Shown here one piece after another: positions 1 through 18,027 of a stretch of 64,000 bases of DNA. Position numbers and translations under genes: made by a program. Positions within the stretch are counted from its first letter, which is position 1. Each line of letters begins with the position of its first letter. Under the pieces are notes generated by a model. It was not told the origin of the DNA, made no database searches, and saw nothing but the letters and a program-made list of their open reading frames with translations. The stretch lies in NCBI RefSeq assembly GCF_041886205.1, contig NZ_CP169029.1; one strand, 5' to 3'. The stretch is from Escherichia coli. Lineage in GTDB: Bacteria; Pseudomonadota; Gammaproteobacteria; Enterobacterales; Enterobacteriaceae.

Positions 1-2043
1 CATACAACCGATGCTGCAGGCTCAGCTCGTGCCGCCAGCACGTCAGCCGGACAGGCTGCATCATCTGCTCAGTCAGCATCTTCCAGCGCAGGAACGGCAT
101 CAACAAAGGCCAGTGAAGCATCGAAAAGTGCTGCTGCTGCAGAGTCCTCAAAAAGCGCGGCGGCCACCAGTGCCGCTGCGGCGAAAACGTCAGAAACGAA
201 TGCGGCAGCGTCACAACAATCAGCAGCCACTTCTGCATCCGCCGCGACCACGAAGGCGTCAGAAGCTGCCACCTCAGCCCGGGATGCGGCGGCCTCAAAA
301 GAGGCGGCAAAATCATCAGAAACGAGCGCAGCCTCGAGCGCCAGTAGTGCAGCCTCCTCGGCAACAGCGGCAGGAAATTCCGCGAAGGCGGCAAAAACGT
401 CCGAGACGAACGCTAAGTCTTCTGAGACGGCAGCAGCACAGAGTGCCTCCGCAGCAGCAGACTCAAAAACAGCGGCTGCCTCATCTGCCAGCGCCGCGTC
501 AACAAATGCCGGGCAGGCCTCAGCCAGTGCCACCGCCGCCGGAAAATCGGCAGAAAGTGCTGCATCGTCCGCTTCAACAGCCACAACGAAGGCTGGCGAA
601 GCCGCTGTACAGGCCAGCGCAGCAGCGAGGTCTGCTTCCGCAGCGAAGACATCCGAGACGAACGCGAAAGCGTCGGAAACCAGCGCAGAATCCTCAAAAA
701 CGGCTGCCGCATCGTCCGCCAGTTCGGCGGCGTCATCGGCATCATCGGCGTCTGCTTCAAAAGATGAGGCGACCAGACAGGCGTCAGCAGCAAAGGGCAG
801 CGCCACGACGGCATCCACGAAGGCGACAGAGGCAGCTGGCAGTGCGACGGCGGCAGCTCAGAGCAAAAGTACGGCGGAATCCGCGGCAACGCGCGCCGAG
901 ACAGCGGCAAAACGGGCAGAGGATATTGCATCCGCCGTGGTGCTTGAGGATGCGAGCACGACGAAAAAGGGGATAACCATGCCACAGGCGAGTTCTGTTG
1001 TTTCAATTACGTTGATTGGTGGTGCGGGATTTAACGTGGGGTCACCTCAACAGGCAGGTATATCTGAACTTGTTTTGCGTGCAGGTAATGGTAATCCGAA
1101 GGGGATTACTGGTGCTTTATGGCAGCGCACATCGACAGGGTTTACAAATTTTGCCTGGGTCAATACATCTGGTGATACTTACGATATTTACGTTGCAATC
1201 GGAAATTATGCGACTGGTGTAAATATTCAATGGGATTATACCAGTAATGCCAGCGTGACGATTCATACGTCACCAGCATATTCTGCTAATAAGCCGGAAG
1301 GGTTAACGGACGGTACAGTTTATTCACTCTATACGCCATCAGAGCAGTTTTATCCGCCTGGCGCACCAATCCCGTGGCCATCAGATACCGTTCCGTCTGG
1401 CTATGCCCTGATGCAGGGGCAGACTTTTGACAAATCTGCATACCCGAAACTTGCAGCCGCTTATCCGTCAGGCGTGATCCCTGATATGCGTGGCTGGACG
1501 ATTAAGGGCAAACCCGCCAGTGGTCGTGCCGTATTGTCTCAGGAACAGGACGGCATTAAATCGCACACCCACAGCGCCAGCGCATCCAGTACGGATTTGG
1601 GGACGAAAAACACATCGTCGTTTGATTACGGAACCAAATCCACGAATAACACCGGGGCGCATACCCATAGTATTAGCGGGACTGCAAATAGTGCCGGTGC
1701 GCACCAACACAAGAGTTCCGGTGCATTTGGTGGCACGAACACGAGCATTTTCCCTAATGGTTATACCGCGATTTCAAATCTAAGCGCGGGGATTATGAGC
1801 ACAACAAGCGGTAGTGGCCAGACTCGTAATGCAGGGAAGACATCATCAGATGGTGCTCATACCCACTCGCTGTCCGGCACTGCTGCAAGCGCAGGCGCAC
1901 ATGCACATACTGTCGGTATTGGTGCTCATACGCACTCCGTTGCGATTGGTTCACATGGACACACCATCACCGTTAACGCTGCTGGTAACGCGGAAAACAC
2001 CGTCAAAAACATCGCATTTAACTATATTGTGAGGCTTGCATAA
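1..2043 (+). CDS. stfQ: Side tail fibre protein, 5'-partial (continues upstream of window)
   Basis: Frame 1 is open from base 1 to the TAA at 2041-2043; Ala/Ser/Thr-rich repeats (AKTSETNA-like) then His-rich HTHS/AHxH C-terminal motifs typical of lambdoid Stf; the ORF track 937..2043 is the C-terminal part of this frame. Confidence 0.85.
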
Positions 2044-2618
2044 TGGCATTCAGAATGAGTGAACAACCACAGACCATAAAAATTTATAATCTGCTGGCCG
2101 GAACTAATGAATTTATTGGTGAAGGTGACGCATATATTCCGCCTCATACAGGTCTGCCAGCAAACAGTACCGATATTGCACCGCCAGATATTCCGGCAGG
2201 CTTCGTGGCTGTTTTCAACAGTGATGAGGCATCGTGGCATCTCGTTGAAGATCATCGGGGAAAAACCGTCTATGACGTGGCTTCCGGCGACGCGTTATTT
2301 ATTTCTGAACTCGGTCCGTTACCGGAAAATGTTACCTGGTTATCGCCGGAAGGGGAGTTTCAGAAGTGGAACGGCACAGCCTGGGTGAAGGATACGGAAG
2401 CAGAAAAACTGTTCCGGATCCGGGAGGCGGAAGAAACAAAAAACAACCTGATGCAGGTAGCCAGTGAGCATATTGCGCCGCTTCAGGATGCTGCAGATCT
2501 GGAAATTGCAACGGAGGAAGAAATCTCGTTGCTGGAAGCATGGAAAAAGTATCGGGTATTGCTGAACCGTGTTGATACGTCAACTGCACAGGATATTGAA
2601 TGGCCAGCACTGCCGTAG
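2043..2618 (+). CDS. tfaQ: Tail fibre assembly protein (191 aa)
   Basis: ATG overlaps the stf stop (TAATG); protein [16 protein letters not shown]... matches the Tfa family. Confidence 0.9.
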
Positions 2619-2715
2619 GGTAAAACATATAAATTCTATAATTAGATGTATCTTTCCATTTACGGCAAGGAAGGGGGCTTGGAACACGTAAAGCATCTCA
2701 CACCGAGATTATTTT

Positions 2716-3306
2716 TTATATGTCAGGTGTCTGAAGTTTTGCTTTGGCTCTTAAAATGGTTTGCCGCGAGGTTTTGAATTCCCGGGCAATGGCACTTATA
2801 CTTACACCTGACTTAATTCGTTCGAATACCACCTGTTTCTGTTCTTCATTTAACACAGGTGGTCGACCAAAACGTTTCCCTGCGCCGCGGGCTCTTACTA
2901 TCCCGGAATGAGTGCGTTCAAGTAAAAGGTCTCGTTCAAATTCAGCGACTGCTGAAATTACTTGCATCATCATTTTTCCTGTTGGACTGGTCAGGTCAAT
3001 GCCACCCAATGCTAAGCAATGCACTCTGATACCTGTTTCGGTCAGTTGTTCCACTGTTTTCCTGATATCCATTGCATTACAACCAAGGCGATCCAGTTTT
3101 GTCACAATCAATTGATCACCACATTTCAGGCGAGCAAGCAACCGGTTAAAACCAGGACGCTCACTGGTTGCTGCTGAGCCGCTAATGTGTTCTTCGATTA
3201 TTTGCTGAGGTTTGATTTTAAAACCTGCACTTTCGATTTCCCGGCGTTGATTTTCGGTGGTCTGATCCAGCGTTGATATCCGACAGTAAGCAAAAATTCG
3301 AGACAT
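2716..3306 (-). CDS. pinQ: Serine recombinase / DNA invertase (Pin/Hin/Gin family, 196 aa)
   Basis: N-terminal resolvase fold [15 protein letters not shown] with catalytic Ser context, C-terminal HTH; convergent with stf-tfa. Confidence 0.9.
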
Positions 3307-3623
3307 AGTGAGACTCTATTCGAAATTGGTGTTCATATCATAATGCATCTCAGAAAATAATTATGATTATTTTTGTGCATATTTGTATGTACACGTTCGA
3401 AAATAAACGAATGCGTATGCAACCCCGTAATTTTTGGTGAGACCCAAAATCGATTTTGTGAAAAATGGCTTTAACTTGGTTTGTTTTTCGAGTTCCGGGC
3501 GGGCTCAAGGAAGAAGAATAGTGTTGCGTGTTATTTTAACCAGATTTCAAGTTGTTTGGACGTGGAAAAGTGGAGCAAAATGTTGTTAAAGTGGAAAAAT
3601 GATAAAAAAGTAAGTTTATTATA

Positions 3624-3857
3624 TTACATTTTACCATTTAAATTTTGGTTGTCTTTAAGAACTGATATCGCTGTTTGTAATAATTCTTTGTTATCCAGCC
3701 ATGATTTTTTCTTTATGTTTCCTTCAATGTAATCAAGCAATGTTCTGGTATTAATAGGTCTTCCCTGTTTTGCTACTTCCACTACAGCATCCCCTAGGAT
3801 AATTCTTACTTCAGGAAGCTGCGCAGGGAACCACTTAAGGGTGTCTTTTGATTTCAT
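3624..3857 (-). CDS. ydfK: Small prophage protein YdfK/YnaE family (77 aa)
   Basis: ORF track 3624..3890; start placed at the internal ATG 3855-3857, which has an AAGGAA Shine-Dalgarno 8 nt upstream. Confidence 0.75.
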   Translation of the reverse strand: MKSKDTLKWFPAQLPEVRIILGDAVVEVAKQGRPINTRTLLDYIEGNIKKKSWLDNKELLQTAISVLKDNQNLNGKM

Positions 3858-4642
3858 GAAGATATTCCTTAAAATATTATTGATTTTCATTGCGATATTG
3901 TATGTCTGATTCAGGATATGTTGACTTATACATCGGTTTTGTCTGGGTTATTGGATATGCCAATCCCTAATTTTATTAGGGCATGACTAAAAATGCTGAA
4001 TATGATAAGGAGAGAAGTGATTATCAGTATGCTGTTCATATAGCCTCGAATTAGTAATGTGTTATATATGATATAGTTGACAATTTTTATCTTGGGTGTT
4101 TTTAAAGTTCGTAGATAAACATTGTCGTTTCAGGTATACAGGAATGCTAGCAGGTGGCAGCAAAAATCAGGCGGTTTATGGCGCAAGCTGAAGCGGCAAC
4201 TGCAAACTATCTTATGCAGAGACTCTACACGGATTGGGTTTAAAAGTATACATAGATAACAGTTTTTATCTGAAAAAGAAAAATATCAAGGTGATATAGC
4301 CTATATGCCTTTGATGCGGAGGAATGACTGTGATGGGAGTGATGTATCTGAATAGTTGAAAAAACGCAGACACGCCTTATGCAAGAACGTGCTGCGGTTG
4401 GCTGGTAAATTTTTCGATAGTGTGAGTATTGAATGATTTCCAGCCGTTCTTGATTTTACGCATAAATCCATGAAAAAACTACTTATCTGTTGGGGAGTTT
4501 TTTTGGGGCATATATGGGACAGAAATAGGCCCCAGATAGACACTGAGATCGAACTTAGGATGCTTTTTAAAAAATGCAACTATCTGAAAAAACCTAGAAA
4601 ACGCCAAGGAAACCACAGGATGGGAAAAAACACCTGTGAATT

Positions 4643-5926
4643 ATGGATTTCCAGTTATATTCGCTCGGCGCAGCGTTAGTGTTTCATGAAATATTTTTTC
4701 CTGAATCATCAACGGCAATGGCGTTAATTCTGGCAATGGGAACCTACGGTGCAGGTTATGTGGCGCGTATTGTCGGAGCATTTATTTTCGGCAAAATGGG
4801 CGACAGAATAGGGCGTAAAAAAGTGCTCTTTATTACCATCACCATGATGGGGATCTGTACTACCTTAATTGGTGTGCTGCCGACCTATGCACAAATTGGT
4901 GTTTTTGCACCCATCTTGCTGGTGACGCTGCGTATTATTCAGGGGTTGGGTGCAGGTGCGGAAATTTCCGGTGCCGGTACGATGCTGGCGGAATATGCGC
5001 CAAAAGGTAAGCGCGGAATTATCTCCTCATTTGTGGCTATGGGAACTAACTGCGGAACCTTGAGCGCAACGGCAATCTGGGCCTTTATGTTCTTCATTCT
5101 CAGTAAAGAGGAACTGCTGGCGTGGGGATGGCGTATACCGTTCCTGGCGAGCGTTGTCGTGATGGTCTTTGCTATCTCGTTACGTATGAATCTGAAAGAA
5201 AGCCCGGTCTTTGAGAAGGTTAATGACAGCAACCAACCGACAGCAAAACCTGCACCTGCTGGTAGCATGTTCCAGAGCAAATCCTTCTGGCTGGCAACAG
5301 GGCTGCGTTTTGGTCAGGCGGGTAACTCCGGGTTAATTCAGACTTTCCTTGCAGGCTATTTAGTGCAGACGTTATTGTTTAACAAAGCAATTCCAACAGA
5401 TGCATTGATGATTAGTTCGATTCTCGGCTTTATGACCATTCCGTTCCTTGGTTGGTTATCCGATAAAATTGGTCGCCGGATCCCGTATATTATTATGAAT
5501 ACCTCCGCGATTGTGCTGGCATGGCCAATGCTTTCTATCATCGTAGATAAAAGCTATGCCCCGAGCACCATTATGGTTGCACTGATTGTGATTCATAACT
5601 GTGCGGTGCTGGGATTATTTGCTCTGGAAAACATTACCATGGCAGAAATGTTCGGCTGTAAAAACCGCTTTACCCGGATGGCTATTTCTAAAGAAATTGG
5701 TGGTCTTATCGCTTCCGGTTTTGGTCCTATCCTGGCGGGTATTTTCTGCACCATGACGGAATCCTGGTATCCGATCGCCATTATGATCATGGCATATTCA
5801 GTGATTGGTTTAATCTCTGCGCTGAAAATGCCAGAGGTGAAAGACCGTGATTTAAGTGCGCTGGAAGACGCTGCGGAAGATCAACCGCGTGTTGTAAGAG
5901 CTGCGCAACCTTCCAGAAGTCTGTAA
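4643..5926 (+). CDS. ydfJ: MFS (MHS-family) transporter, apparently N-terminally truncated at the prophage junction
   Basis: 427-aa ORF with MFS signatures (GKMGDRIGRKK loop) but lacking the usual N-terminal segment; begins right after the prophage/host boundary. Confidence 0.8.
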   Translation: MDFQLYSLGAALVFHEIFFPESSTAMALILAMGTYGAGYVARIVGAFIFGKMGDRIGRKKVLFITITMMGICTTLIGVLPTYAQIGVFAPILLVTLRIIQGLGAGAEISGAGTMLAEYAPKGKRGIISSFVAMGTNCGTLSATAIWAFMFFILSKEELLAWGWRIPFLASVVVMVFAISLRMNLKESPVFEKVNDSNQPTAKPAPAGSMFQSKSFWLATGLRFGQAGNSGLIQTFLAGYLVQTLLFNKAIPTDALMISSILGFMTIPFLGWLSDKIGRRIPYIIMNTSAIVLAWPMLSIIVDKSYAPSTIMVALIVIHNCAVLGLFALENITMAEMFGCKNRFTRMAISKEIGGLIASGFGPILAGIFCTMTESWYPIAIMIMAYSVIGLISALKMPEVKDRDLSALEDAAEDQPRVVRAAQPSRSL

Positions 5927-6013
5927 ACCCTCAATCCCTTCTCTTACCGGAGAGGGGATTTTTATTCATATAACAAAACATGTAGCTTGCATATTTAAAT
6001 TTAAGGAATTGTT

Positions 6014-7474
6014 ATGGGAAATAATTTGTTATCAGCAAAAGCGACGCTCCCTGTTTATGATCGTAATAACCTAGCTCCAAGAATTGTTCATTTAGGCTTT
6101 GGTGCATTTCACCGTGCGCATCAGGGTGTGTATGCCGATATTCTTGCTACGGAACATTTCAGTGACTGGGGATATTATGAGGTCAACTTAATCGGCGGCG
6201 AACAGCAAATTGCCGATTTACAACAGCAAGATAATCTTTATACCGTTGCGGAAATGTCGGCCGATGTGTGGACGGCTCGCGTTGTTGGCGTCGTTAAAAA
6301 AGCCTTGCACGTACAGATAGATGGCTTAGAAACCGTGTTGGCAGCGATGTGTGAACCGCAAATCGCGATTGTCTCTCTGACAATCACCGAAAAAGGGTAT
6401 TTCCACTCTCCGGCGACCGGACAGTTAATGCTCGATCACCCGATGGTAGCTGCCGACGTGCAAAATCCCCACCAGCCGAAAACAGCAACAGGGGTGATTG
6501 TTGAGGCGCTGGCTCGCCGTAAAGCGGCAGGACTTCCCGCATTTACCGTCATGTCATGTGACAACATGCCAGAAAACGGTCATGTTATGCGTGACGTTGT
6601 CACTTCCTACGCACAAGCCGTTGATGTAAAACTGGCACAATGGATCGAAGATAACGTGACTTTCCCATCAACAATGGTGGACCGTATTGTGCCCGCAGTG
6701 ACAGAGGATACGCTGGCGAAAATCGAACAACTTACCGGTGTGCGCGATCCTGCGGGCGTTGCCTGTGAACCTTTCCGCCAGTGGGTAATAGAAGATAACT
6801 TTGTTGCCGGACGTCCGGAATGGGAAAAAGCGGGAGCCGAACTGGTTAGCGATGTGCTGCCTTATGAAGAGATGAAGTTGCGCATGCTCAACGGCAGTCA
6901 TTCATTCCTGGCGTATCTGGGGTATCTTGCAGGATATCAGCACATTAATGACTGTATGGAAGATGAACATTATCGTTATGCGGCGTATGGCTTGATGTTG
7001 CAGGAACAAGCGCCGACGTTGAAAGTGCAGGGCGTTGATTTGCAAGATTACGCTAACCGATTAATTGCACGCTATAGCAACCCGGCGTTACGTCATCGAA
7101 CCTGGCAGATTGCGATGGATGGTAGCCAGAAATTGCCACAGCGGATGTTGGATTCTGTTCGCTGGCATCTGGCGCATGACAGCAAGTTCGATCTGCTGGC
7201 GCTGGGCGTCGCGGGTTGGATGCGTTATGTCAGTGGTGTTGATGAACAGGGAAATCCGATAGAAATCAGTGACCCACTGTTACCTGTTATTCAGAAGGCT
7301 GTACAAAGTAGTGCCGAAGGGAAAGCGCGCGTCCAGTCATTGCTGGCGATTAAGGCGATCTTTGGTGATGATTTGCCAGACAATAGTTTGTTTACTGCAA
7401 GAGTGACGGAAACGTACTTGTCTTTATTAGCGCATGGCGCGAAAGCGACCGTGGCAAAATATTCCGTGAAGTAA
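6014..7474 (+). CDS. ydfI: Mannitol/mannonate dehydrogenase-family oxidoreductase (486 aa)
   Basis: [10 protein letters not shown] dinucleotide-binding N-terminus, long-chain mannitol dehydrogenase family; RBS present. Confidence 0.9.
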
Positions 7475-7477
7475 AAA

Positions 7478-7498
7478 AGCAATGCCGCCATCGGCGGC
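7478..7498. terminator. Hairpin (AATGCCGCC-atc-GGCGGCATT) between convergent ydfI and ydfZ; T-run on the minus strand
   Basis: Perfect 9-bp stem read directly; followed by a T-tract on the ydfZ strand. Confidence 0.5.
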
Positions 7499-7508
7499 AT
7501 TCACACGC

Positions 7509-7712
7509 TTAGTTCATGCCGAGACGAATCAGGTCCAGTGGTGCCAGTTTCTCTTCACAACCTTCAACAACTACGGTTTTTCCGCGGCGGATTTGCTCAG
7601 CGGTCAGACCTTCAGTATCAATCGACAGGATCTTGCCAGTGTGACCGGTGCCGCTAACCATAACACGGCTGCCAGTGGTGATTGCGTTACGGTTACGATC
7701 GTAGGTCGTCAT
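7509..7712 (-). CDS. ydfZ: Small conserved protein YdfZ (67 aa)
   Basis: [39 protein letters not shown]...; conserved position. Confidence 0.85.
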
Positions 7713-7888
7713 AGGTGTTTTCTCCTTTCTGATTTACAGTCGAAGCCCACGTAACGGGCGCAATATAAATACTCCTGTCGAGTGAAATATTTTTTGTTTT
7801 TGATCAAGCTCACATCTTTTTTGATGCATGCATGAGCCATAAGGCGGGGGAAAAGACTCTCACCCCGGATGGGATGAGAGGAAATGAA

Positions 7889-8575
7889 TTACTCTTCGCT
7901 AAACCAGTCGCTGTTTTCCTGGCGGATCTGGCGCACGGATTCGCTGATTTCCTGCAAATGTTGCGTCATTGCACGTTCTACCGCATCGCCATCACGTTTT
8001 TGCAGGGCAGAGAAAATATCAAGATGCTGGCGTAACAGCATTTCTGGTGGAGAAACGTGGTCGAAACTCATATAGCGCACGCGATCAACGGTCGCTTTCA
8101 GGTTCTCAATGGTATCCCACGCCAGTTGACAGTCGGCAATCTGCGTCAGGAGTTGATGGAAGTTGTCATCAAGTTCAAAAAAATCATCCAGTTGCTTGCG
8201 CTCAATGGCAATGCGTTGCTGGTGAAGATTTTGTTCCAGTTGATAGCACTGGCTTTCGGTAATCATGCTCGCCGCCCGACGCGCCACCGCGCACTCAATG
8301 GCCTGACGGATAAAACTGCCGTTGCGCACCTGGGCCATGGAAATTTTGTTGACGTAGCTGCCACGTTGCGGACGAATTTGAATCAGGCCGTTTTCCGCCA
8401 GTTTAATAAAGGCTTCACGAACCGGCTGGCGTGACACATTGAAACGAACAGAAACTTCTTTTTCCGACAACGGTGTGCCTGGAGCAATCAGGCAATGGAC
8501 AATGTCGCGACGAAGAATACGATAAATCTGCTGATTGACAGGCTGTGTGGGATTAAGTTGCGTTTCGACGGTCAT
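7889..8575 (-). CDS. ydfH: GntR/FadR-family transcriptional regulator (228 aa)
   Basis: N-terminal winged HTH ([40 protein letters not shown]) plus FCD domain. Confidence 0.9.
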
Positions 8576-8663
8576 TCGTTCTTGCTTGTGAGTGAGTTAA
8601 CTGCATGAGTCTACCACTTTTTTGTGACAAGCAATAACCCGGCAGTTACGCCGGGTATAAAAA

Positions 8664-9410
8664 TTACTGACGGTGGATATTCAGTCCGGCATAGCTTTGG
8701 GTAACCGGCATCATTTCCAGGGTATTGATATTGACGTGAGCAGGCAGCGTTGACACCCACCAGACGGCTTCGCTGACATCTTCTGGCGTCAATGCAACGG
8801 TATTTTGATAGGTTTTTTCTGCTTTACCGTCATCGCCTTTAAAGCGGACATTGGAAAACTCGGTACCACCCACCAGACCCGGTTCGATGTCGGTGACGCG
8901 CACCGCCGTACCATGCAGATCCGTACGCAGATTCAGGCTAAACTGACGAACAAACGCTTTCGTCGCACCGTAAACGTTACCACCGGCATACGGCCAGCTA
9001 CCTGCCGTTGAGCCAATGTTAATAATATGACCATGATTACGTTCAACCATACCCGGTAAGACGGCGCGCGTCATATATACCAAGCCTTTGTTGTTGGTAT
9101 CAATCATCGTTTCCCAGTCTTCAACGCTGGCTTTATGCGCAGGCTCCATGCCCAACGCTAGGCCGGCATTATTTACCAGGATATCAATATTGCACCACTC
9201 GGCAGGAAGCGATGCCAGCATCTCTTCAATAGCGGCGCGGTTGCGAACGTCCAGTTGGGCGATATACAGATTATCTCCCAGTTCGTCTTTTAACTCCTGC
9301 AACCGTTCCTGGCGACGGCCAGTGGCGATAACTTTATGCCCTTGTTGAATAAAACGACGAGTAATGCATTCACCAAAACCTGCCGTTGCTCCAGTTACTA
9401 AAACGATCAT
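8664..9410 (-). CDS. ydfG: NADP-dependent short-chain dehydrogenase (3-hydroxy acid dehydrogenase, 248 aa)
   Basis: TGATAGFG Rossmann motif, SDR fold; start taken at MIVLVTG. Confidence 0.9.
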   Translation of the reverse strand: MIVLVTGATAGFGECITRRFIQQGHKVIATGRRQERLQELKDELGDNLYIAQLDVRNRAAIEEMLASLPAEWCNIDILVNNAGLALGMEPAHKASVEDWETMIDTNNKGLVYMTRAVLPGMVERNHGHIINIGSTAGSWPYAGGNVYGATKAFVRQFSLNLRTDLHGTAVRVTDIEPGLVGGTEFSNVRFKGDDGKAEKTYQNTVALTPEDVSEAVWWVSTLPAHVNINTLEMMPVTQSYAGLNIHRQ

Positions 9411-9546
9411 CTCACTGTTCCTCAACGCTTTTGTGTGTCAATAACATAGCACGGGATGCTTAAGAGCGGGTAATACTGGATTGCAAGATTGCACTCCGTT
9501 ATCAGTAAGCCTACGCTATGGAACACCTCGCGTTCAGGAGAAGAAA

Positions 9547-11592
9547 ATGACAACAATGAATCCTTTCCTTGTGCAAAGCACACTGCCGTATCTGGCTCCC
9601 CATTTTGATCAAATTGCCAATCATCACTATCGCCCGGCATTCGATGAGGGAATGCAGCAAAAGCGGGCAGAAATTGCTGCCATCGCGCTTAACCCGCAAA
9701 TGCCTGATTTCAACAATACTATTCTGGCACTGGAACAAAGCGGAGAATTACTTACCCGCGTTACCAGCGTCTTTTTTGCGATGACTGCGGCGCATACCAA
9801 TGATGAATTACAGCGTCTTGACGAGCAGTTTTCCGCTGAACTGGCGGAACTGGCTAATGATATCTATCTGAACGGTGAATTATTCGCGCGGGTAGATGCT
9901 GTCTGGCAGCGCCGTGAATCCCTGGGGCTTGATAGTGAATCCATCCGCCTGGTGGAGGTGATTCATCAACGTTTTGTCCTTGCCGGAGCCAAACTTGCGC
10001 AAGCTGATAAAGCAAAATTAAAAGTACTGAATACAGAAGCTGCGACCCTGACCAGCCAGTTTAACCAGCGATTACTGGCAGCAAATAAATCCGGCGGTCT
10101 GGTTGTGAACGATATCGCGCAGCTGGCAGGAATGAGTGAGCAAGAGATTGCGCTGGCGGCAGAGGCGGCTCGCGAGAAAGGTCTGGATAACAAATGGCTG
10201 ATTCCGCTGCTGAATACCACCCAACAACCGGCGCTTGCCGAAATGCGCGATCGTGCGACGCGTGAAAAACTGTTTATTGCGGGCTGGACGCGAGCGGAAA
10301 AAAATGATGCCAATGATACCCGCGCTATCATTCAACGTCTGGTGGAGATCCGTGCACAACAGGCAACACTACTTGGTTTTCCTCATTATGCCGCATGGAA
10401 AATCGCCGATCAGATGGCAAAAACACCCGAAGCAGCACTCAACTTTATGCGGGAAATTGTTCCAGCGGCGCGTCAACGTGCGAGCGATGAATTAGCCTCC
10501 ATACAGGCGGTTATCGATAAGCAGCAGGGCGGGTTTAGCGCGCAGCCGTGGGACTGGGCATTTTATGCCGAACAGGTCCGGCGGGAGAAATTTGATCTTG
10601 ATGAGGCGCAGCTCAAGCCATATTTTGAATTAAACACGGTGTTGAATGAAGGTGTATTCTGGACCGCGAATCAGCTCTTCGGTATTAAGTTTGTCGAACG
10701 TTTTGATATTCCTGTCTACCATCCTGACGTTCGAGTGTGGGAAATTTTTGATCATAATGGCGTGGGACTGGCGTTATTTTACGGTGATTTCTTCGCCCGT
10801 GATTCAAAAAGCGGCGGTGCATGGATGGGCAATTTTGTTGAGCAATCAACACTTAATGAAACGCGTCCGGTAATTTATAACGTCTGCAATTATCAGAAAC
10901 CCGCTGCCGGTGAGCCTGCGTTGTTACTCTGGGATGATGTCATAACCTTATTCCATGAATTTGGTCATACGCTGCACGGCCTCTTTGCCCGCCAGCGTTA
11001 TGCCACGCTTTCCGGCACCAACACGCCGCGTGATTTTGTCGAATTTCCGTCGCAAATCAACGAACACTGGGCAACGCATCCGCAGGTATTCGCTCGCTAC
11101 GCCCGGCATTATCAGAGCGGGGCAGCAATGCCTGACGAACTGCAACAGAAAATGCGTAATGCCAGCCTGTTCAACAAAGGGTATGAGATGAGCGAACTGC
11201 TTAGCGCCGCACTTCTCGATATGCGCTGGCATTGCCTGGAAGAAAACGAAGCAATGCAGGATGTCGATGATTTTGAATTGCGGGCGCTGGTGGCGGAAAA
11301 TATGGATCTTCCTGCTATACCGCCACGCTATCGCAGCAGTTATTTCGCCCATATTTTTGGTGGCGGATATGCCGCAGGTTATTACGCTTATCTGTGGACA
11401 CAAATGTTGGCCGATGATGGTTATCAGTGGTTTGTTGAGCAGGGCGGATTAACGCGTGAAAATGGGCTGCGTTTTCGCGAGGCGATCCTTTCCAGAGGTA
11501 ACAGCGAAGATCTGGAACGCCTGTATCGACAATGGCGCGGTAAGGCTCCTCAGATTATGCCGATGCTGCAACATCGTGGCTTGAACATATAA
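9547..11592 (+). CDS. dcp: Dipeptidyl carboxypeptidase II (M3 metallopeptidase, 681 aa)
   Basis: HEFGH zinc-binding motif present; AGGAGA RBS before the ATG at 9547; the longer ORF-track start at 9481 is rejected. Confidence 0.95.
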   Translation: MTTMNPFLVQSTLPYLAPHFDQIANHHYRPAFDEGMQQKRAEIAAIALNPQMPDFNNTILALEQSGELLTRVTSVFFAMTAAHTNDELQRLDEQFSAELAELANDIYLNGELFARVDAVWQRRESLGLDSESIRLVEVIHQRFVLAGAKLAQADKAKLKVLNTEAATLTSQFNQRLLAANKSGGLVVNDIAQLAGMSEQEIALAAEAAREKGLDNKWLIPLLNTTQQPALAEMRDRATREKLFIAGWTRAEKNDANDTRAIIQRLVEIRAQQATLLGFPHYAAWKIADQMAKTPEAALNFMREIVPAARQRASDELASIQAVIDKQQGGFSAQPWDWAFYAEQVRREKFDLDEAQLKPYFELNTVLNEGVFWTANQLFGIKFVERFDIPVYHPDVRVWEIFDHNGVGLALFYGDFFARDSKSGGAWMGNFVEQSTLNETRPVIYNVCNYQKPAAGEPALLLWDDVITLFHEFGHTLHGLFARQRYATLSGTNTPRDFVEFPSQINEHWATHPQVFARYARHYQSGAAMPDELQQKMRNASLFNKGYEMSELLSAALLDMRWHCLEENEAMQDVDDFELRALVAENMDLPAIPPRYRSSYFAHIFGGGYAAGYYAYLWTQMLADDGYQWFVEQGGLTRENGLRFREAILSRGNSEDLERLYRQWRGKAPQIMPMLQHRGLNI

Positions 11593-11636
11593 ACACCACC
11601 AATGGCTGTCCTGGAGATATCGCCAGGCCAGCCTGG

Positions 11637-12155
11637 TTATAGCAGTAATTGCAGCAGCTGGGCGAGGGCAAACCTCACCGCTAAAGCTAATACCGTTTCG
11701 CAGTCGCCAGCAAAATGCATAACCGCAGTATAGGTCTGGCCTTTAATATGCCACGCGAACCAGACGGTACCCGCTGGCGTACCATCTTCACCGCCCTCCG
11801 GTCCGCCGTAGCCGGTAATGGCAATACTGACATCAGCATCCGCACGCTCTATGGCACCGGTTGCCATTTCTGCTGCCACTTTCTCACTCACCGCAGAATA
11901 TCGTTCAAGAGATTGCTGGCTTACGCTGAGGATTTTCATCTTTGCCTGATCGGTGAAAGTAACAAAGCCTGCACCGTAAAATTTGGGTGTATCTTCAGCT
12001 GCACACAGGGCGCTAGCCAACTTACCGCCGGTGCATGATTCGGCGGTAGTTAAGCGTAATTGATCCGCGATTAGTCTTTGACTCAACGCGGATGTCAGGT
12101 TTTCAATAGTGTCGGTATCTGCAAGTTGTACAATTTTATCGCTATTAATGTTCAC
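11637..12155 (-). CDS. ydeJ: CinA-like competence/damage-inducible domain protein (172 aa)
   Basis: ORF with CinA C-terminal domain character; conserved position next to dcp. Confidence 0.85.
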   Translation of the reverse strand: MNINSDKIVQLADTDTIENLTSALSQRLIADQLRLTTAESCTGGKLASALCAAEDTPKFYGAGFVTFTDQAKMKILSVSQQSLERYSAVSEKVAAEMATGAIERADADVSIAITGYGGPEGGEDGTPAGTVWFAWHIKGQTYTAVMHFAGDCETVLALAVRFALAQLLQLLL

Positions 12156-12430
12156 TGTTTTTTGTCCACGCTTTTATATGTAAAGGTGATTTGCTTTTTC
12201 TGTATGCTCGTCCAATATAATAATTTTCAAACATATAAATCCGATTATTCTGAAAATATATTTAAGACTATTTGATCTTCTTAACTTTAGTGAGTTAAAT
12301 TCTCTGAATATTTGACAGCTAGTTGCCTGATTTTAAATGCCTTATAACAATTGGCAGTATTCTTATTTGGCAATTATAAAAATAGCAACCAGACTTAATA
12401 AGTCAAACCAAACGCAATTAAGGAGTCAGT

Positions 12431-12823
12431 ATGAAATTTCAGGCCATTGTATTAGCAAGTTTTCTTGTCATGCCTTATGCGTTGGCAGATGACCAGGGCG
12501 GTTTAAAACAGGATGCAGCGCCACCGCCGCCTCATGCAATAGAAGATGGCTATCGCGGAACCGATGATGCAAAAAAAATGACCGTTGATTTCGCAAATAC
12601 CATGCACGATGGCGCTTCGGTTTCACTACGCGGTAATTTGATTTCTCACAAAGGAGAGGACCGTTACGTTTTTCGCGATAAGAGCGGTGAAATTAATGTC
12701 GTTATTCCTGCGGCCGTCTTTGATGGACGAGAAGTTCAGCCGGACCAGATGATCAACATTAGCGGCAGTCTGGATAAGAAAAGCGCGCCGGCCGTCGTTC
12801 GGGTCACTCATTTGCAGAAATAA
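12431..12823 (+). CDS. ydeI: YgiW/BOF-family periplasmic stress protein (130 aa)
   Basis: Signal peptide [19 protein letters not shown] then OB-fold family sequence; good RBS (AAGGAG). Confidence 0.85.
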
Positions 12824-13077
12824 AAATAAATTAGCCTGATGGCCTGAACTACTGGGCCATTAGGGTATTGGGTTATGCTATTTGTCATCCTTTTATTTAC
12901 GATAATGCAGAGGTAATTTACAGAATTAAACACTTTTTTATCCGCTGATTTTGTTTTAAATCACAATGTTATCTCAGAGATGACTCATAACTTCGGATTT
13001 CTATGAAAATATTGACGTAATTTTGCTTTTCTCTCGTTAGAATAGCGCGCACAAGGAACTGTGAAAAAGGAGTGGCA

Positions 13078-13968
13078 ATGATCAAGAAGACAACGGAAAT
13101 TGATGCCATCTTGTTAAATCTCAATAAGGCTATCGATGCCCACTACCAGTGGCTGGTGAGTATGTTTCACAGCGTGGTCGCGAGAGATGCCAGTAAGCCA
13201 GAAATAACGGATAACCATTCTTATGGACTGTGCCAGTTTGGTCGGTGGATTGATCATCTGGGGCCACTCGATAACGATGAATTACCTTACGTTCGGCTAA
13301 TGGATTCTGCCCATCAACATATGCATAACTGTGGTCGGGAATTAATGCTGGCTATTGTTGAAAATCACTGGCAGGACGCGCATTTCGACGCCTTTCAGGA
13401 GGGGTTGCTTTCTTTTACTGCGGCATTAACCGATTACAAAATTTATTTGCTGACGATCCGTAGCAATATGGATGTTTTGACGGGATTGCCGGGGCGTCGG
13501 GTTCTTGATGAATCCTTTGATCATCAGTTACGCAACGCTGAGCCTCTGAATCTTTATTTAATGTTGTTGGATATTGACCGATTTAAATTGGTTAATGATA
13601 CCTACGGGCATTTAATCGGCGATGTAGTATTACGCACCCTGGCAACTTACTTAGCCAGTTGGACGCGTGATTACGAAACGGTTTATCGCTACGGGGGCGA
13701 AGAATTTATCATTATTGTCAAAGCGGCTAATGATGAAGAAGCATGTCGTGCAGGTGTCAGAATTTGCCAGTTAGTCGATAACCATGCCATCACGCATTCT
13801 GAAGGGCATATCAACATTACCGTGACAGCAGGTGTCAGTCGCGCATTTCCTGAAGAGCCTCTGGATGTGGTCATTGGAAGAGCAGACCGGGCAATGTATG
13901 AGGGTAAGCAAACCGGAAGAAATCGCTGCATGTTTATTGATGAACAAAATGTGATTAACCGAGTTTAA
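13078..13968 (+). CDS. dgcZ: Zinc-sensory diguanylate cyclase (CZB + GGDEF, 296 aa)
   Basis: C-terminal GGDEF domain with RYGGEEF active site; start at MIKKTTEID. Confidence 0.9.
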   Translation: MIKKTTEIDAILLNLNKAIDAHYQWLVSMFHSVVARDASKPEITDNHSYGLCQFGRWIDHLGPLDNDELPYVRLMDSAHQHMHNCGRELMLAIVENHWQDAHFDAFQEGLLSFTAALTDYKIYLLTIRSNMDVLTGLPGRRVLDESFDHQLRNAEPLNLYLMLLDIDRFKLVNDTYGHLIGDVVLRTLATYLASWTRDYETVYRYGGEEFIIIVKAANDEEACRAGVRICQLVDNHAITHSEGHINITVTAGVSRAFPEEPLDVVIGRADRAMYEGKQTGRNRCMFIDEQNVINRV

Positions 13969-14085
13969 GCTCCGTTTAACATTCATTGAGAAAACTGATG
14001 CTACTGTGTCAACGATCCGTTATCAGTGCAGGAAAATGCCTGTTAGCGTAAAAGCAAAACACAAATCTATCCATGCAAGCATTCA

Positions 14086-14111
14086 CCGCCGGTTTACTGG
14101 CGGTTTTTTTT
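14086..14111 (+). terminator. Rho-independent terminator downstream of dgcZ (CCGCCGG-ttta-CTGGCGG + T8)
   Basis: Stem-loop followed by eight T read directly. Confidence 0.55.
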
Positions 14112-14118
14112 CGCCGTC

Positions 14119-14159
14119 ATAAAAATCAGGCCCCTTGTACACAACTGTAACAAGGGGCC
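14119..14159 (-). terminator. Rho-independent terminator for mgtS (GGCCCCTTGT...ACAAGGGGCC, U-run on minus strand)
   Basis: 10-bp perfect stem then TGATTTTTAT on the minus strand. Confidence 0.55.
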
Positions 14160-14186
14160 GGTTAGGTGAGGGATTATCTCCGTTCA

Positions 14187-14282
14187 TTAGTCATCCCATT
14201 TGTGGCTGAAATACGCGGCCAGAAAACCAGAAAATAAAATTATTCCCAGTACGGCCATAAAAACATTCATATTACCCAGCAT
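14187..14282 (-). CDS. mgtS: Small membrane protein MgtS/YneM (31 aa: MLGNMNVFMAVLGIILFSGFLAAYFSHKWDD)
   Basis: Hand-translated; below the ORF-track length cutoff; GGAGG Shine-Dalgarno 6 nt upstream of the ATG; single predicted transmembrane helix; matches the known E. coli small protein. Confidence 0.8.
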   Translation of the reverse strand: MLGNMNVFMAVLGIILFSGFLAAYFSHKWDD

Positions 14283-14408
14283 TATTTGCCTCCGTTTATG
14301 GTGTGGTGTGTTTCCTCGCTTACCTTAATTTTCATCTCAATGAGAAAGATATTAGCAGAGGTAACCTAAACGAAGGCTGAATTAAATTTTTATTGTGTTC
14401 GACTTAAA

Positions 14409-15596
14409 TCAACAAAGCGCGGGCTGCCCCCACGGTTTTGCACGAATCCCTTTTAACATCAGCACCCACGCAGCAATGATCACCAACGCTAAGATGATAA
14501 ACAGCGAGGAAGGCGGCAGGCTGGTTAGCACTACGCCACTCACTAATGGGTTAATTGCAGCACCAAGCCAGCCTAAAGACTGGGCGGAAAAATAGCTGGC
14601 TTTCATTCCTGGCGGCGCAATATGGTCAATCAACATATACTCGCCCGGCGCATAAATGATTTCACCGACAGTAAATACCGCAGCTGACATACCCCACAAT
14701 AGCAGGCTGTTGCCGGAAAAAATAAAACCAACCAGACCGATGACGAAACAGAGGGTGCCTGCTGTCATCAGCGCGCGGATGTTAACCGGGTTAAGGCGGC
14801 GGCCCACGGAATATTGCAACGTAACTACCATGGCAGCATTAACCGGAAGAACAACCGCGACCACCTTTTCGGCAAAATCCCCATCAGCAATCACCATCAC
14901 ATATTGTGAAATGCATGAAGCAAATGCGCCGCTAACAAAGGAAGCCAGAAAACCAGAGCAGGTAAACCACAACAGTGCTTTATCTTGTAATAAAACTTTC
15001 GGCGACCAGACACTGCCTGTTTCCGTGGCGATGATTTTCTCGCTGCGCTTTACCCAAATTTGAATGAAAAGCATGGGAAACGCGGAACAGATAGCTGCCA
15101 GCCAAAAGGGCAGATTGATGCTCTGCATCACCAACAGCGTGCCGAGCGGCGGACCGATGGTCCAGCCAATGTTTAGCATGGTGTAGTTGATTGAGAAGAT
15201 TTTCGTTTTGCTGGTGGACGAAAGATTGTCGGCAAACCAGGCTTTCAACACGGTAGCAAAAACGGAATAGGCGCAGTTAATAAGGGCAAAAAAGAGCACC
15301 ACCAGCGTCACGTTATTCACTAAAGGAATGGCAATAAAACCGCTGGCGAAGGCGGTAATTGCCAGTAACATATAGCGTTTCTTGTCGAACTTATCCGCCA
15401 GGATACCAAAACCGAGGCTAAAAACGACGCCAATAGTGAGCGCAATTGTCATCGCATAACCGATTAGATCGACACTCAGGCTGTACTGGCGACTCAAGTA
15501 AATGGTCATAAATGGCAGCGTAGCGCCGCGTCCGATGGTTAATAACAACGACGAGGCAAGAAGGGCGCTGGTAGAGCGTCGTAGGGATAAGTTCAT
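14409..15596 (-). CDS. ydeE: MFS transporter (395 aa)
   Basis: 12-TM MFS-type ORF; conserved position. Confidence 0.9.
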   Translation of the reverse strand: MNLSLRRSTSALLASSLLLTIGRGATLPFMTIYLSRQYSLSVDLIGYAMTIALTIGVVFSLGFGILADKFDKKRYMLLAITAFASGFIAIPLVNNVTLVVLFFALINCAYSVFATVLKAWFADNLSSTSKTKIFSINYTMLNIGWTIGPPLGTLLVMQSINLPFWLAAICSAFPMLFIQIWVKRSEKIIATETGSVWSPKVLLQDKALLWFTCSGFLASFVSGAFASCISQYVMVIADGDFAEKVVAVVLPVNAAMVVTLQYSVGRRLNPVNIRALMTAGTLCFVIGLVGFIFSGNSLLLWGMSAAVFTVGEIIYAPGEYMLIDHIAPPGMKASYFSAQSLGWLGAAINPLVSGVVLTSLPPSSLFIILALVIIAAWVLMLKGIRAKPWGQPALC

Positions 15597-15790
15597 TTGT
15601 CTGTCCGGCAGTGCGTTTCGTTATGTTTTGTTTTAGAGATGTAAAGAAATAGCATGGCAAAAATCCGAAGTATAGCGACTTATTTGCGCATTAATGCCGT
15701 CGTAACCGGCGACTAACGAATCAACTGTTAAAGAAAAGTAAATTCAGCTAAGTTGATTGCTTACAAAAGATGAAATTCAGAGGCGGTAGA

Positions 15791-16690
15791 ATGTCGCGAA
15801 AAGATGGGGTGTTGGCGCTACTGGTAGTGGTCGTATGGGGGCTAAATTTTGTGGTCATCAAAGTGGGGCTTCATAACATGCCACCGCTGATGCTGGCCGG
15901 TTTGCGCTTTATGCTGGTCGCTTTTCCGGCTATCTTTTTTGTCGCACGACCGAAAGTACCACTGAATTTGCTGCTGGGGTATGGATTAACCATCAGTTTT
16001 GCGCAGTTTGCCTTTCTGTTCTGCGCCATTAATTTTGGTATGCCTGCTGGACTGGCTTCGCTGGTGTTACAGGCACAGGCGTTTTTTACTATCGTGCTTG
16101 GCGCGTTTACTTTCGGGGAGCGCCTGCATGGCAAACAATTGGCGGGGATCGCCTTAGCGATTTTTAGCGTACTGGTGTTAATCGAAGATAGTCTGAACGG
16201 TCAGCATGTGGCGATGCTCGGCTTTATGTTGACCCTGGCGGCAGCATTTAGTTGGGCGTGTGGCAACATCTTCAATAAAAAGATCATGTCGCACTCAACG
16301 CGTCCGGCGGTGATGTCGCTGGTAATCTGGAGCGCATTAATCCCAATCATTCCCTTCTTTGTTGCCTCGCTGATTCTCGATGGTTCCGCAACCATGATTC
16401 ACAGTCTGGTTACTATCGATATGACCACCATTTTGTCTCTGATGTATCTGGCGTTTGTGGCGACAATTGTTGGTTATGGGATCTGGGGAACACTACTTGG
16501 ACGCTATGAAACCTGGCGGGTTGCACCGTTATCGTTACTGGTGCCCGTAGTCGGACTGGCAAGTGCGGCACTATTGTTGGATGAACGCTTAACGGGTCTA
16601 CAATTTTTCGGTGCGGTGCTCATTATGACCGGGCTGTATATCAATGTATTTGGCTTGCGGTGGCGTAAAGCGGTAAAGGTGGGAAGTTAA
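15791..16690 (+). CDS. eamA: Cysteine/O-acetylserine exporter, EamA/DMT family (299 aa)
   Basis: Start at ATG 15791 (MSRKDGVLALLVV); duplicated EamA domains. Confidence 0.9.
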   Translation: MSRKDGVLALLVVVVWGLNFVVIKVGLHNMPPLMLAGLRFMLVAFPAIFFVARPKVPLNLLLGYGLTISFAQFAFLFCAINFGMPAGLASLVLQAQAFFTIVLGAFTFGERLHGKQLAGIALAIFSVLVLIEDSLNGQHVAMLGFMLTLAAAFSWACGNIFNKKIMSHSTRPAVMSLVIWSALIPIIPFFVASLILDGSATMIHSLVTIDMTTILSLMYLAFVATIVGYGIWGTLLGRYETWRVAPLSLLVPVVGLASAALLLDERLTGLQFFGAVLIMTGLYINVFGLRWRKAVKVGS

Positions 16691-16720
16691 TAAGCCCCGA
16701 GATGTCGGGGCCAGAACAAA

Positions 16721-16939
16721 CTACATAGCGTGTTGATTATAATAGGGCACGCCGAGCGCATCCGACTTATCACTGCCAGTACCCATGTGATTTAAATCAA
16801 ACGGTGGTTGTTCCTGCGATGGGGGAACAACCACGACATTGGCACAAGAAGTAACAACTGGCTGCGTGGTTTGTTCCGCAACGCCCTGCGCGGAAAAGAG
16901 AATAAGCGCAGCTGCTATTGCGGATAAAAGTGGTTTCAT
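16721..16939 (-). CDS. marB: MarB periplasmic protein (72 aa)
   Basis: Signal peptide MKPLLSAIAAALILFSAQGVA; last gene of marRAB. Confidence 0.9.
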   Translation of the reverse strand: MKPLLSAIAAALILFSAQGVAEQTTQPVVTSCANVVVVPPSQEQPPFDLNHMGTGSDKSDALGVPYYNQHAM

Positions 16940-16970
16940 GATTGCCTCAGTGACGTTGTCACGTTATCAA

Positions 16971-17354
16971 CTAGCTGTTGTAATGATTTAATGGATGTAA
17001 AAAGCGCGATTCGCCCTGCATATTGGTCATCCGGTATTTATGCGGCGGAACATCAAAGTAATTTTTGAAGGTTCGGGTCAGAGTTTGTTGCGACTCGAAG
17101 CCATATCGTTCTGCCAGATAGAGTATCGGCTCGTTACTTTCCTTCAGCTTTTGCGCGATTTCCGTCATCTTACGGCTGCGGATGTATTGGCCTAATGAAT
17201 GACCGGTTTCTTTTTTAAACATCCGTTGCAGGTGCCATTTGGAGTAACCCGAACGCTCTGACACTTTCTCCAGTGACAGTGGCGATTCCAGGTTGTCCTC
17301 GATCCAGTCCAAAATGCTATGAATGGTAATAGCGTCAGTATTGCGTCTGGACAT
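16971..17354 (-). CDS. marA: MarA AraC/XylS-family activator (127 aa)
   Basis: [51 protein letters not shown]... reads as MarA; ORF-track upstream extension rejected. Confidence 0.95.
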
Positions 17355-17373
17355 CGTCATACCTCTTTTTTGT

Positions 17374-17808: not shown

Positions 17809-17925
17809 ATTAGTTGCCCTGGCAAGTAATTAGTTGCAGGGGATAATATTGCCCAGGCAAGTATAAGTCAAATGAATGAATGACCGATGCCACGTTTTGC
17901 TAAATCGGTTCAAGTTTTGGTCAAT
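17809..17925 (-). promoter_or_regulatory. marO: marRAB promoter with MarR operator sites (TACTTGCCTGGGCAA / TACTTGCCAGGGCAA) and marbox (GATTTAGCAAAACGTGGCATCGGTCA)
   Basis: Reverse complement of 17809-17925 reads TTGACTTATACTTGCCTGGGCAATATTATCCCCTGCAACTAATTACTTGCCAGGGCAAC and, upstream, the marbox sequence. Confidence 0.85.
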
Positions 17926-18027
17926 GCGATGCAAGGCAATGATACTAATCTGTATGGGAACGGAAAATATAATCTTTGCGTTATTATAACTGATAAGTTA
18001 TATTCAAGTATAAACAGGGGGGAAGCT

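Follow-up and report, generated by a model that had tools for sequence, protein, structure and literature searches.

Gene Layout at the Prophage End

The DNA analysed here (the window, a stretch of 64,000 nucleotides from Escherichia coli) matches E. coli wlxctx60, whose RefSeq annotation was used for the gene calls, with 100% identity, and it opens within the tail-fibre genes of a prophage: the 3′ portion of stf, which encodes the side tail fibre (1–2043, plus strand; Pfam Collar and Phage_fiber) and the start of which lies about 430 bp before the window, is followed by tfaQ (2043–2618, plus strand), annotated in RefSeq as a tail fibre assembly protein of 191 aa (Pfam Caudo_TAP, E = 3.6e-43). 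On the minus strand lie pinQ (2716–3306), which encodes a small serine recombinase of 196 aa with the Pfam Resolvase N-terminal domain and HTH_7, then ydfK (3624–3857), encoding the cold-shock protein YdfK, and ynfT (3926–4039), annotated in RefSeq as a small protein of the YnaM/YnfT family (NCBIfam NF041477, E = 1.2e-17). These coordinates confirm what the initial annotation had described, that pinQ converges on a single stf-tfa pair across a spacer of 97 bp (2619–2715), and the spacer is of equal length in phage mEp460_ev081 (22739–22835) and in the P0009 lineage. Scanning 2400–4800 for terminators and promoters gave nothing above the shuffled expectation, and over the pinQ–ydfJ interval Rfam returned only a weak CssrB match, below threshold.

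This arrangement belongs to the phages themselves, in which pinQ sits in a pin-ydfK-ynfT block carried between the side-tail-fibre module and attP. The complete genomes of mEp460_ev081, 2H10 and Kati have stf-tfa and pin facing each other as in the window, phages Tritos and HannyBb keep the convergent order but have another fibre module, and a protein identical to PinQ is encoded in complete phage genomes in the same convergent layout; five phage loci, together with K-12 Qin, are all colinear with the window and show no inversion.

Prophage Integration and the Split ydfJ

As had been supposed, the region is the end of a prophage, where AT-rich DNA (GC 0.32–0.39 across about 3300–4650) leads to an att core abutting ydfJ. 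The window is colinear with mEp460_ev081 from 1847 to 4651, ending exactly at attP, so that the last phage arm (3858–4651) runs into attR, and the core itself, TTATGGATTTC, occupies 4641–4651 and marks the junction with the host. The overlap with attP extends up to 15 bp (4637–4651), homology to prophage-free genomes starts at 4637, and both prophage ends meet as a 15-bp overlap at 24757–24771 of mEp460_ev081, which is its attP. The other copy of the core is found at about 7380 of locus L001, adjoining int (7426–8706).

The gene on the host side, ydfJ′ (4643–5926, plus strand), comprises codons 29–455 of a transporter of the MFS (MHS family) and does lack its N-terminus: the ORF opens at the native internal Met29 and encodes 427 aa, against the 455 aa of ydfJ in NC101. 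Alignment with this full-length orthologue identifies the absent 5′ portion as the first 28 codons, which are preserved as a stub 17 kb away at attL, between rspB and the intact int. NC101 thus supplies the empty site, since the host flanks of the prophage join precisely in its uninterrupted ydfJ, and of 5426 complete genomes, 2009 have the target intact. The 5′ end of ydfJ is therefore missing because of prophage integration, and of the two causes that had been proposed, integration or deletion, the former holds (an att core at both ends, the 28 codons beside int) and the latter does not. In other words, a tyrosine integrase inserted the prophage at about codons 26–31 of ydfJ, leaving a 28-codon stub at attL and a 427-codon part at attR; the att cores, the empty target and the match to attP are all present.

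The element is a defective lambdoid prophage of the Qin type, of about 17.3 kb, that retains int and xis. It shares with Qin of K-12 the integration site, the att core and the gene order (stfQ-tfaQ-pinQ-ydfK-ynfT); the MG1655 locus is 98.8% identical to 1346–4800 of the window, and the K-12 allele of pinQ, 99% identical, differs in 2 of 196 residues. The prophage differs from Qin in its intact int and xis (in K-12, IS2 interrupts intQ, which is a pseudogene), its longer stf, other internal deletions and its length, about 17.3 against 20.5 kb. K-12 is annotated with the same split, ydfJ and ynfP around “cryptic prophage Qin,” so that the prophage end and the divided ydfJ are textbook knowledge (ynfP/ydfJ), to which nothing new is added here.

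Search for an Invertible Segment

The initial annotation had described pinQ as an invertase that looks orphaned, a view that would make it a Gin/Pin-type enzyme whose segment, an alternative stf C-terminus with its tfa, had been deleted together with the crossover sites during prophage decay. Such a loss would agree with the position of pinQ, which immediately follows stf-tfa much as gin, cin and pinE adjoin their segments, and with the heavy internal deletion of the prophage; against it, the complete phage genomes show the same layout and no alternative set.

No trace of a segment was recovered. When the 64 kb were searched by tblastn with TfaQ and the C-terminal 368 aa of Stf, only stf and tfaQ themselves were found, the next matches having E of at least 1, so that the window holds no second tfa or stf C-terminus, as had been stated. 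Neither stf-tfa nor pinQ is flanked by inverted repeats above chance, and generic searches for inverted and direct repeats around stf-tfa-pinQ gave only chance-level pairs, with 70–80% match. For the crossover sites, a Din-type matrix was made by combining the e14 pix sites with gix/hix half-sites; the real pix sites score 28.6 and 31.6 bits with it and the maxima of shuffled sequences 7.1 ± 2.3, and in the window and the whole prophage the best score is 9.3 bits, with no half-site pair, which agrees with the earlier failure to see gix/hix-like sites and means that no remnant of pix, gix or hix survives there. A simple scan for AAACCNNGGTTT gave just two matches, each with 2 mismatches. These results support the conclusion that neither a Din-type crossover site nor a cis invertible segment exists here. 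A homologue in Erwinia phage LS-2018a (61% identity) was also followed as a lead to an invertible segment, and was abandoned, there being no informative repeats or layout nearby.

PinQ Among the Serine Recombinases

PinQ carries the Resolvase and HTH_7 domains, with Y7, R9 and S11 invariant in the alignment, and is by these features a small serine recombinase. Its identity to PinE is 39% and to P1 Cin 36%, against the roughly 60–70% that members of the Din family share, and with an identity of just 36–39% to them PinQ is not a member of the Gin/Cin/Pin/Hin family. With the Din systems (Gin/G of Mu, Cin/C of P1, PinE/P of e14, Hin/H of Salmonella) it has in common the superfamily, the size, the tail-fibre neighbourhood and a 26-bp site; it differs from them in that low identity, in having neither inverted crossover sites nor alternative fibre genes, and in accessory subsites arranged as in resolvases. 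The name “Pin” is based on a weak similarity, of about 38% identity.

In the protein comparisons, the nearest relatives of PinQ are resolvases of plasmids and of Tn3-family transposons. It is 83% identical to one plasmid homologue, 78–86% identical to proteins encoded in 1671 plasmid records, and 57% identical to a Rhizobium TnpR which, in the one case examined, lies divergent from a Tn3-family tnpA. At the DNA level, a resolvase cassette (2677–3386, minus strand), comprising the gene with 39 bp beyond its stop codon and 80 bp ahead of its ATG, has 82% homology to the E. coli plasmid p2RM9088. Like PinQ, TnpR of the TnpR/res modules and the plasmid multimer-resolution resolvases (57–83% identity) are small serine recombinases with a C-terminal HTH. 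A phage-borne protein, P0008, which has Arg at position 76, was considered as an ancestral intact phage module and set aside, as it is a mosaic with a plasmid-type patch and its site I has decayed too.

The distance from Cin and PinE, together with the plasmid and transposon resolvases as closest relatives, which have a res-like site upstream, stands against a deleted segment, which we now regard as very improbable; given that intact phages share the layout and that PinQ falls in a resolvase clade with a res-like region upstream of its own gene, the term orphaned invertase is not upheld.

The Active Site of PinQ

Measured against the key residues of Tn3 resolvase (Y6, R8, S10, D36, R68 and R71), the set in PinQ is incomplete. 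Codon 76 is TGT (3079–3081, minus strand), so that the motif KLDRLGC ends in a Cys where the relatives, with CGT or CGA, have the Arg that corresponds to R71 of Tn3/gamma-delta resolvase; D36 is replaced by Glu throughout the PinQ clade, and the other key residues are present. Cys76 is found in just 5 of 120 cluster representatives, namely those of the PinQ/PinR clusters and of the cluster of P0009. In Tn3 resolvase, the changes R71A and R71K abolish recombination and slow cleavage about 1000-fold (PMC2794168), and PinQ is probably a poor catalyst. The ORF is nevertheless intact in thousands of genomes, and the dN/dS between the two Cys76 lineages is 0.35, which implies that pinQ evolves under relaxed selection but not neutrally.

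A Res-Like Region Upstream of pinQ

The genes of the homologues are each preceded by a predicted res-like region of three subsites at fixed offsets, overlapping the promoter: (i) subsite I, of 26 bp, at −115/−99 from the ATG; (ii) subsite II, of 32 bp, at −75/−53; (iii) and subsite III, at −35/−22, which is the one that overlaps the promoter. Three dyad subsites with fixed spacing and an overlapping promoter are also what is found in the TnpR/res modules of the Tn3 family. The half-site, TGTMCGAAA, recurs at fixed offsets in eight Arg76 homologues from gamma- and alpha-proteobacteria, and resembles the half-sites of Tn3 and gamma-delta; site I, with 12 + 2 + 12 = 26 bp, is shorter than that of Tn3, which has 28 bp.

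Upstream of pinQ the same region persists as relics on the minus strand. Site I, the presumed crossover site (3394–3419), scores 8.3 bits, its left half −0.2, against 22–31 bits in the Arg76 homologues, and its centre has changed from CGRYCG to CGTTTA; a first alignment had suggested a 21-bp insertion here, a gap that vanished with more sequences, site I being degenerate and not interrupted. Site II (3348–3379) keeps its 12-bp spacer and scores 11.9 bits, against 27.5 in two independent Arg76 loci, and site III (3317–3337) has a half-site of 5.9 bits and abuts a −10-like TATGAT at 3337–3342. As the site I sequences of the eight homologues served to train the half-site matrix, its independent tests are the positions of sites II and III and the IMG/VR loci. 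Of the independent IMG/VR loci, 24 have Arg; in 12 of these a dyad at −115 to −119 exceeds 20 bits, and in a further 7 one at −114 to −147 reaches 12–16 bits, and all 11 loci of the PinQ type score at most 10.6 bits. In the phage-borne lineage, then, the predicted site I is no longer distinguishable from chance, and sites II and III are weakened with their spacing kept. The sequences indicate that the cognate site of the PinQ clade would be this res-like region upstream of its own gene, and not paired sites around a fibre segment. Compared with a TnpR/res module, pinQ has a degenerate crossover subsite, Cys in place of R71 and no transposase or plasmid context; its multi-subsite res exists as relics only, and there is no second res in direct repeat.

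A second, partner dyad was found neither in the window nor in the prophage nor in the intact phage mEp460_ev081. This bears on another reading, in which PinQ would invert or delete a cis segment within Qin through sites of a kind that escapes recognition. Divergent serine recombinases can indeed have sites that are difficult to see, although nothing positive speaks for such a segment: there is no repeat, inverted or direct, above chance around pinQ or stf-tfa, the six compared loci are all colinear, and Kirigo et al. (PMC12529663) report no Qin or rac inversions in database genomes. We hold this reading to be highly unlikely.

Inversion of the e14 P Segment in trans

The same gene has been presented as a defence gene by Kirigo et al. 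(NAR 2025; PMC12529663), who report that overproduced PinQ raises inversion of the e14 P segment from about 30% to 88%, that deletion of pinQ lowers it, and that inversion of this 1797-bp segment yields a chimeric StfE2 that blocks adsorption of phage T2. PinQ would then be a fully active invertase acting in trans on Din-type segments of other prophages. The 88% inversion with plasmid-borne pinQ, the inverted P segment of the survivors, the loss of the effect in strains without stfP, stfE or e14, and the T2 escape mutations in gp38 (all PMC12529663) favour it, and the effects of overproduction and deletion argue that PinQ is catalytically active despite Cys76. Against this stand two features of the same study: the pinE single mutant, in which pinQ and pinR remain on the chromosome, is fixed in a single orientation, and the inversion table does not contain plasmid-borne PinQ in a pinE mutant (PMC12529663). 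The half-site matrix of the PinQ family gives the four pix half-sites −6.8 to −0.3 bits, against 10–15.6 for cognate sites, and the catalytic R71 position is occupied by Cys. In wlxctx60, moreover, icd is directly followed by iraM, so that at the icd locus, the one place examined, there is no e14, and the reported target of PinQ is missing from its usual place. We consider a fully active trans invertase possible but rather doubtful. Neither Cys76 nor a resolvase-type site preference appears in the discussion of Kirigo et al., in the part of the article at hand (PMC12529663).

A further reading, to be entertained tentatively and less likely to be right than wrong, is that PinQ and PinR are catalytically crippled resolvase relics kept by lambdoid phages as DNA-binding proteins, and that the effect of overproduction on P inversion depends on PinE: it would arise through mixed tetramers with PinE, through site occupancy or through selection, and not through catalysis by PinQ. 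The decay itself may have been selected, as working res/resolvase copies, if present in several prophages of one chromosome, would cause deletion or inversion of the DNA that separates them.

Origin and Role of pinQ

In summary, the explanation that we think probable is that the prophage end seen here is attR of a Qin-type element integrated in ydfJ, and that pinQ is a resolvase gene carried by the phage, its recognition site decayed and its active site altered, and not an invertase that lost its segment. The phage integrated by its tyrosine integrase into ydfJ, with the stub left at attL and the 3′ part at attR; PinQ, according to this explanation, would be without a cis substrate, because as a resolvase it would never have had an invertible segment. 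Most plausibly, by analogy with TnpR, PinQ would bind the leftover predicted subsites over its own promoter and so repress itself, and any recombination by PinQ would take place in trans at other sites, as reported for the e14 P segment of K-12. As a counterpoint, site I shares its geometry (12 + 2 + 12 = 26 bp) with the crossover sites of invertases, and the best PDB matches of PinQ are Gin, with 105 bits, and gamma-delta/Tn3 resolvase, with about 82 bits; this geometry and the higher score against Gin leave room for an invertase-like activity of PinQ.

The reclassification of PinQ and PinR into a resolvase clade is possibly useful, as it creates a testable tension with the work of Kirigo et al. 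and bears directly on their 2025 claim of PinQ as the first recombinase-activated phage-defence enzyme (PMC12529663). More generally, it would counsel caution, in that a small serine recombinase beside tail-fibre genes is not always a host-range invertase.

Gene layout and the junction with ydfJ

Positions 1-6000 of the window are 100% identical to wlxctx60 (NZ_AP045833.1), at least 80% of this interval is present in 735 genomes, and the ORF list and the RefSeq annotation of wlxctx60 concord on the layout: the side tail fibre gene stf ends at 2043 and is followed by tfaQ (2043-2618), pinQ (2716-3306, on the strand opposite to tfaQ), ydfK (3624-3857), ynfT (3926-4039) and ydfJ (from 4643, flagged "missing N-terminus" in RefSeq), past which lie ydfI, ydfZ, rspR, ydfG and dcp in that order. 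What lies here is the right-hand end of a prophage of Qin type, in reversed orientation with respect to MG1655, where the same genes fall within the feature "cryptic prophage Qin". All the elements observed in the initial annotation are confirmed: convergent tfaQ and pinQ are separated by exactly 97 bp, the second stf/tfa set said to be lacking is indeed not found (tblastn of TfaQ and of the C-terminal 368 aa of Stf over all 64 kb returned self matches only), the prophage end is AT-rich, with GC down to 0.32-0.39 over about 3300-4650, and ydfJ is a 427-codon ORF that begins at native Met29, as against 455 aa in NC101, where the gene directly follows rspB.

The proposal that ydfJ was clipped by integration or deletion stands in its first part and fails in its second. 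In prophage-free genomes homology to the window starts at 4637, and in a three-way alignment host DNA continues through ...GAATTTATGGATTTC at the far prophage end, between rspB and the intact integrase gene, while the window side reads GAATTATGGATTTC and CAGTTATAT to the left and right of the junction; the att core TTATGGATTTC (window 4641-4651) is common to both ends. Both ends also align to phage mEp460_ev081, with a 15-bp overlap at its attP, so that the AT-rich stretch is the phage arm beside attP; this phage is colinear with window 1847-4651 at 98.7%. The gene has thus been split by integration, without any deletion, its 5' part lying beyond the far end of the prophage. Of 5426 complete E. 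coli genomes, 2009 match a probe spanning the site without a break; most others break at the same point, the site being one used very frequently for lambdoid integration. The prophage end and the split gene are correct, but already known annotation, the 5' stub being annotated in K-12 as ynfP.

Some further observations belong to this region. The attachment site (window 4637-4651; about 4008-4020 in locus L002) is occupied or disrupted in some 62% of complete E. coli genomes. The Qin-like prophage of wlxctx60 (7426-24651 of its locus L001) measures about 17.3 kb, with int and xis intact, a truncated exonuclease gene, and neither head genes nor most tail genes, a deletion pattern unlike that of K-12 Qin. 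The Rfam family IS009 (RF02111) matches 2400-2584 (+), within the 3' part of tfaQ, with 199 bits against a gathering score of 117, the 5' end being clipped by the searched range. Further on, at window 18027-18621 (L001 38027-38621), the mar regulatory interval holds, according to RefSeq, genes for a toxin of the RelE/ParE family and for an HTH antitoxin; they separate marR from marC, an insertion not known from K-12.

The pin block in phages and on plasmids

That no gix/hix-like crossover sites exist here was borne out with a Din half-site matrix built from the two real pix sites of e14 in MG1655, CTCTCGAAAACCTTGGTTTGGGAGAA and TTCTCCCAAACCAACGTTTATGAAAA, and from gix/hix half-sites: the pix sites score 31.6 and 28.6 bits, whereas the best site in the window and the whole prophage reaches 9.3 (shuffled maxima 7.1 +/- 2.3), and repeat searches gave chance-level inverted pairs alone. 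To the initial annotation the invertase had looked orphaned, a reading that does not survive comparison with the phages themselves. PinQ is encoded, at 99% identity or more, in 11 phage records; mEp460_ev081, 2H10 and Kati share the gene order J, lom, stf, tfa, opposite-strand pin, ydfK and the att/int region, the tfa-pin spacer of mEp460_ev081 is also 97 bp, and none of the six loci compared departs from colinearity with the window. One stf-tfa pair facing pin is thus how these phages are normally built and does not result from decay of the prophage. A phage-borne lineage 85% identical to PinQ (P0009) is likewise convergent with tfa across 97 bp.

Tritos and HannyBb carry the same pin block with another fibre module, and they align with the window from 2507 on, so the terminal 112 bp of tfaQ (2507-2618) travel with the pin block, there as a non-coding relic, and mark a recombination boundary.

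PinQ, a protein with Resolvase and HTH_7 domains, shares 36-39% identity with Cin and PinE. At 78-86% identity there is a very large group of proteins annotated only as "recombinase family protein"; tblastn with one member, P0014, found 1671 plasmid records, and DNA homology of plasmid p2RM9088 covers window 2677-3386. The plasmid copies examined are solitary and away from tail fibres, and a Rhizobium plasmid homologue 57% identical to PinQ is transcribed divergently from a transposase gene of the Tn3 family and flanked on the other side by merA, which is the classical tnpA-res-tnpR arrangement. Elsewhere a plasmid homologue adjoins a TrlF-family AAA-like ATPase gene in Klebsiella michiganensis (L017, 2203-3567) and another adjoins ccdAB in Providencia (L013, 782-1307), contexts more in keeping with plasmid maintenance or defence islands than with tail fibres.

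A res-like region and its state in pinQ

About 120 bp 5' of the start codon are conserved from E. coli plasmids through an Erwinia phage, and in eight gamma- and alpha-proteobacterial homologues the half-site consensus TGTMCGAAA, which presumably resembles the Tn3/gamma-delta half-sites, recurs at fixed offsets from the ATG: as an inverted pair at -115 and -99 (site I, 26 bp, central CGRYCG), as a second inverted pair at -75 and -53 (site II, 32 bp), and at -35 and -22, beside the -10 box (site III). The PinQ-family matrix was trained on site I alone, and the positions of sites II and III are therefore independent support. Of 24 independent IMG/VR loci encoding Arg76, 12 carry a dyad that exceeds 20 bits, placed at -115 to -119, and in 7 others the score is 12-16 bits, at -114 to -147. 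The architecture upstream of the relatives is, from its sequence, that of a predicted resolvase res site.

In pinQ the site I dyad scores 8.3 bits (left half -0.2, central hexamer CGTTTA), against 22-31 in relatives and shuffled maxima of 7.1 +/- 3.0, while site II (11.9 bits) and a site III half-site (5.9) both retain their spacing. Site I of P0009 is decayed in the same way, all 11 PinQ-type IMG/VR loci remain at or below 10.6 bits, and a matrix scan of the window, the prophage and mEp460_ev081 gave no further dyad of this family. The protein has also changed: the motif KLDRLGR of Gin, PinE and all relatives reads KLDRLGC in PinQ, by a single CGT to TGT transition (window 3079-3081), and Cys is confined at this position to 5 of 120 cluster representatives, those of the PinQ/PinR clusters and of P0009. 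Position 76 corresponds to R71 of Tn3/gamma-delta resolvase. Mutants of this residue, as of five others, no longer recombine, and their cleavage is slower by a factor of about 1000 or more (PMC2794168); the remaining key catalytic residues are present. A dN/dS of 0.35 between two Cys76 lineages, and of 0.15-0.19 between phage and plasmid types, suggests that constraint on pin is relaxed yet continuing.

At the prfC site, the pin gene carried by a phage (L021, 4700-5600; protein P0008) is a mosaic, of plasmid type from about -65 to some two-thirds of the coding region, Arg76 included, and with PinQ-type flanks, decayed site I included, which suggests that plasmid and prophage copies have exchanged sequence by gene conversion.

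What was noticed is real, though ordinary: in place of an orphaned invertase, pinQ is a resolvase-type cassette of Qin/Rac-like phages, a kind of gene that requires no invertible segment in cis. The alternative of a decayed Din system is very unlikely in view of the phage layout and the kinship with resolvases. The phage lineage has lost the crossover subsite of pinQ and one catalytic arginine. Our best guess is that PinQ mainly binds its own promoter region, and any recombination by it would be in trans.

Reported inversion in trans

Kirigo et al. (NAR 2025, PMC12529663) report inversion of the e14 P segment (1797 bp) at about 30%, rising to 88% with plasmid-borne PinQ; the inversion yields StfE2, which blocks T2 adsorption. 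The same paper states that databases gave no inversions within Qin or rac, and describes a pinE single mutant locked in one orientation despite chromosomal pinQ and pinR; its inversion table has no entry for a pinE mutant with the pinQ plasmid. The four pix half-sites score -6.8 to -0.3 bits on the PinQ-family matrix. At the icd locus of wlxctx60 (L020, 1-1700, or NZ_AP045833.1 1743400-1745100) e14 is absent and iraM comes directly after icd, so the published target is missing from its usual locus. The locked mutant, the inversion table, the pix half-site scores, Cys76 and the lack of e14 at icd call for caution; the present analysis does not refute the claim itself, but the sequence offers concrete grounds to re-examine inversion by PinQ in trans, namely its possible dependence on PinE and the effect of Cys76.
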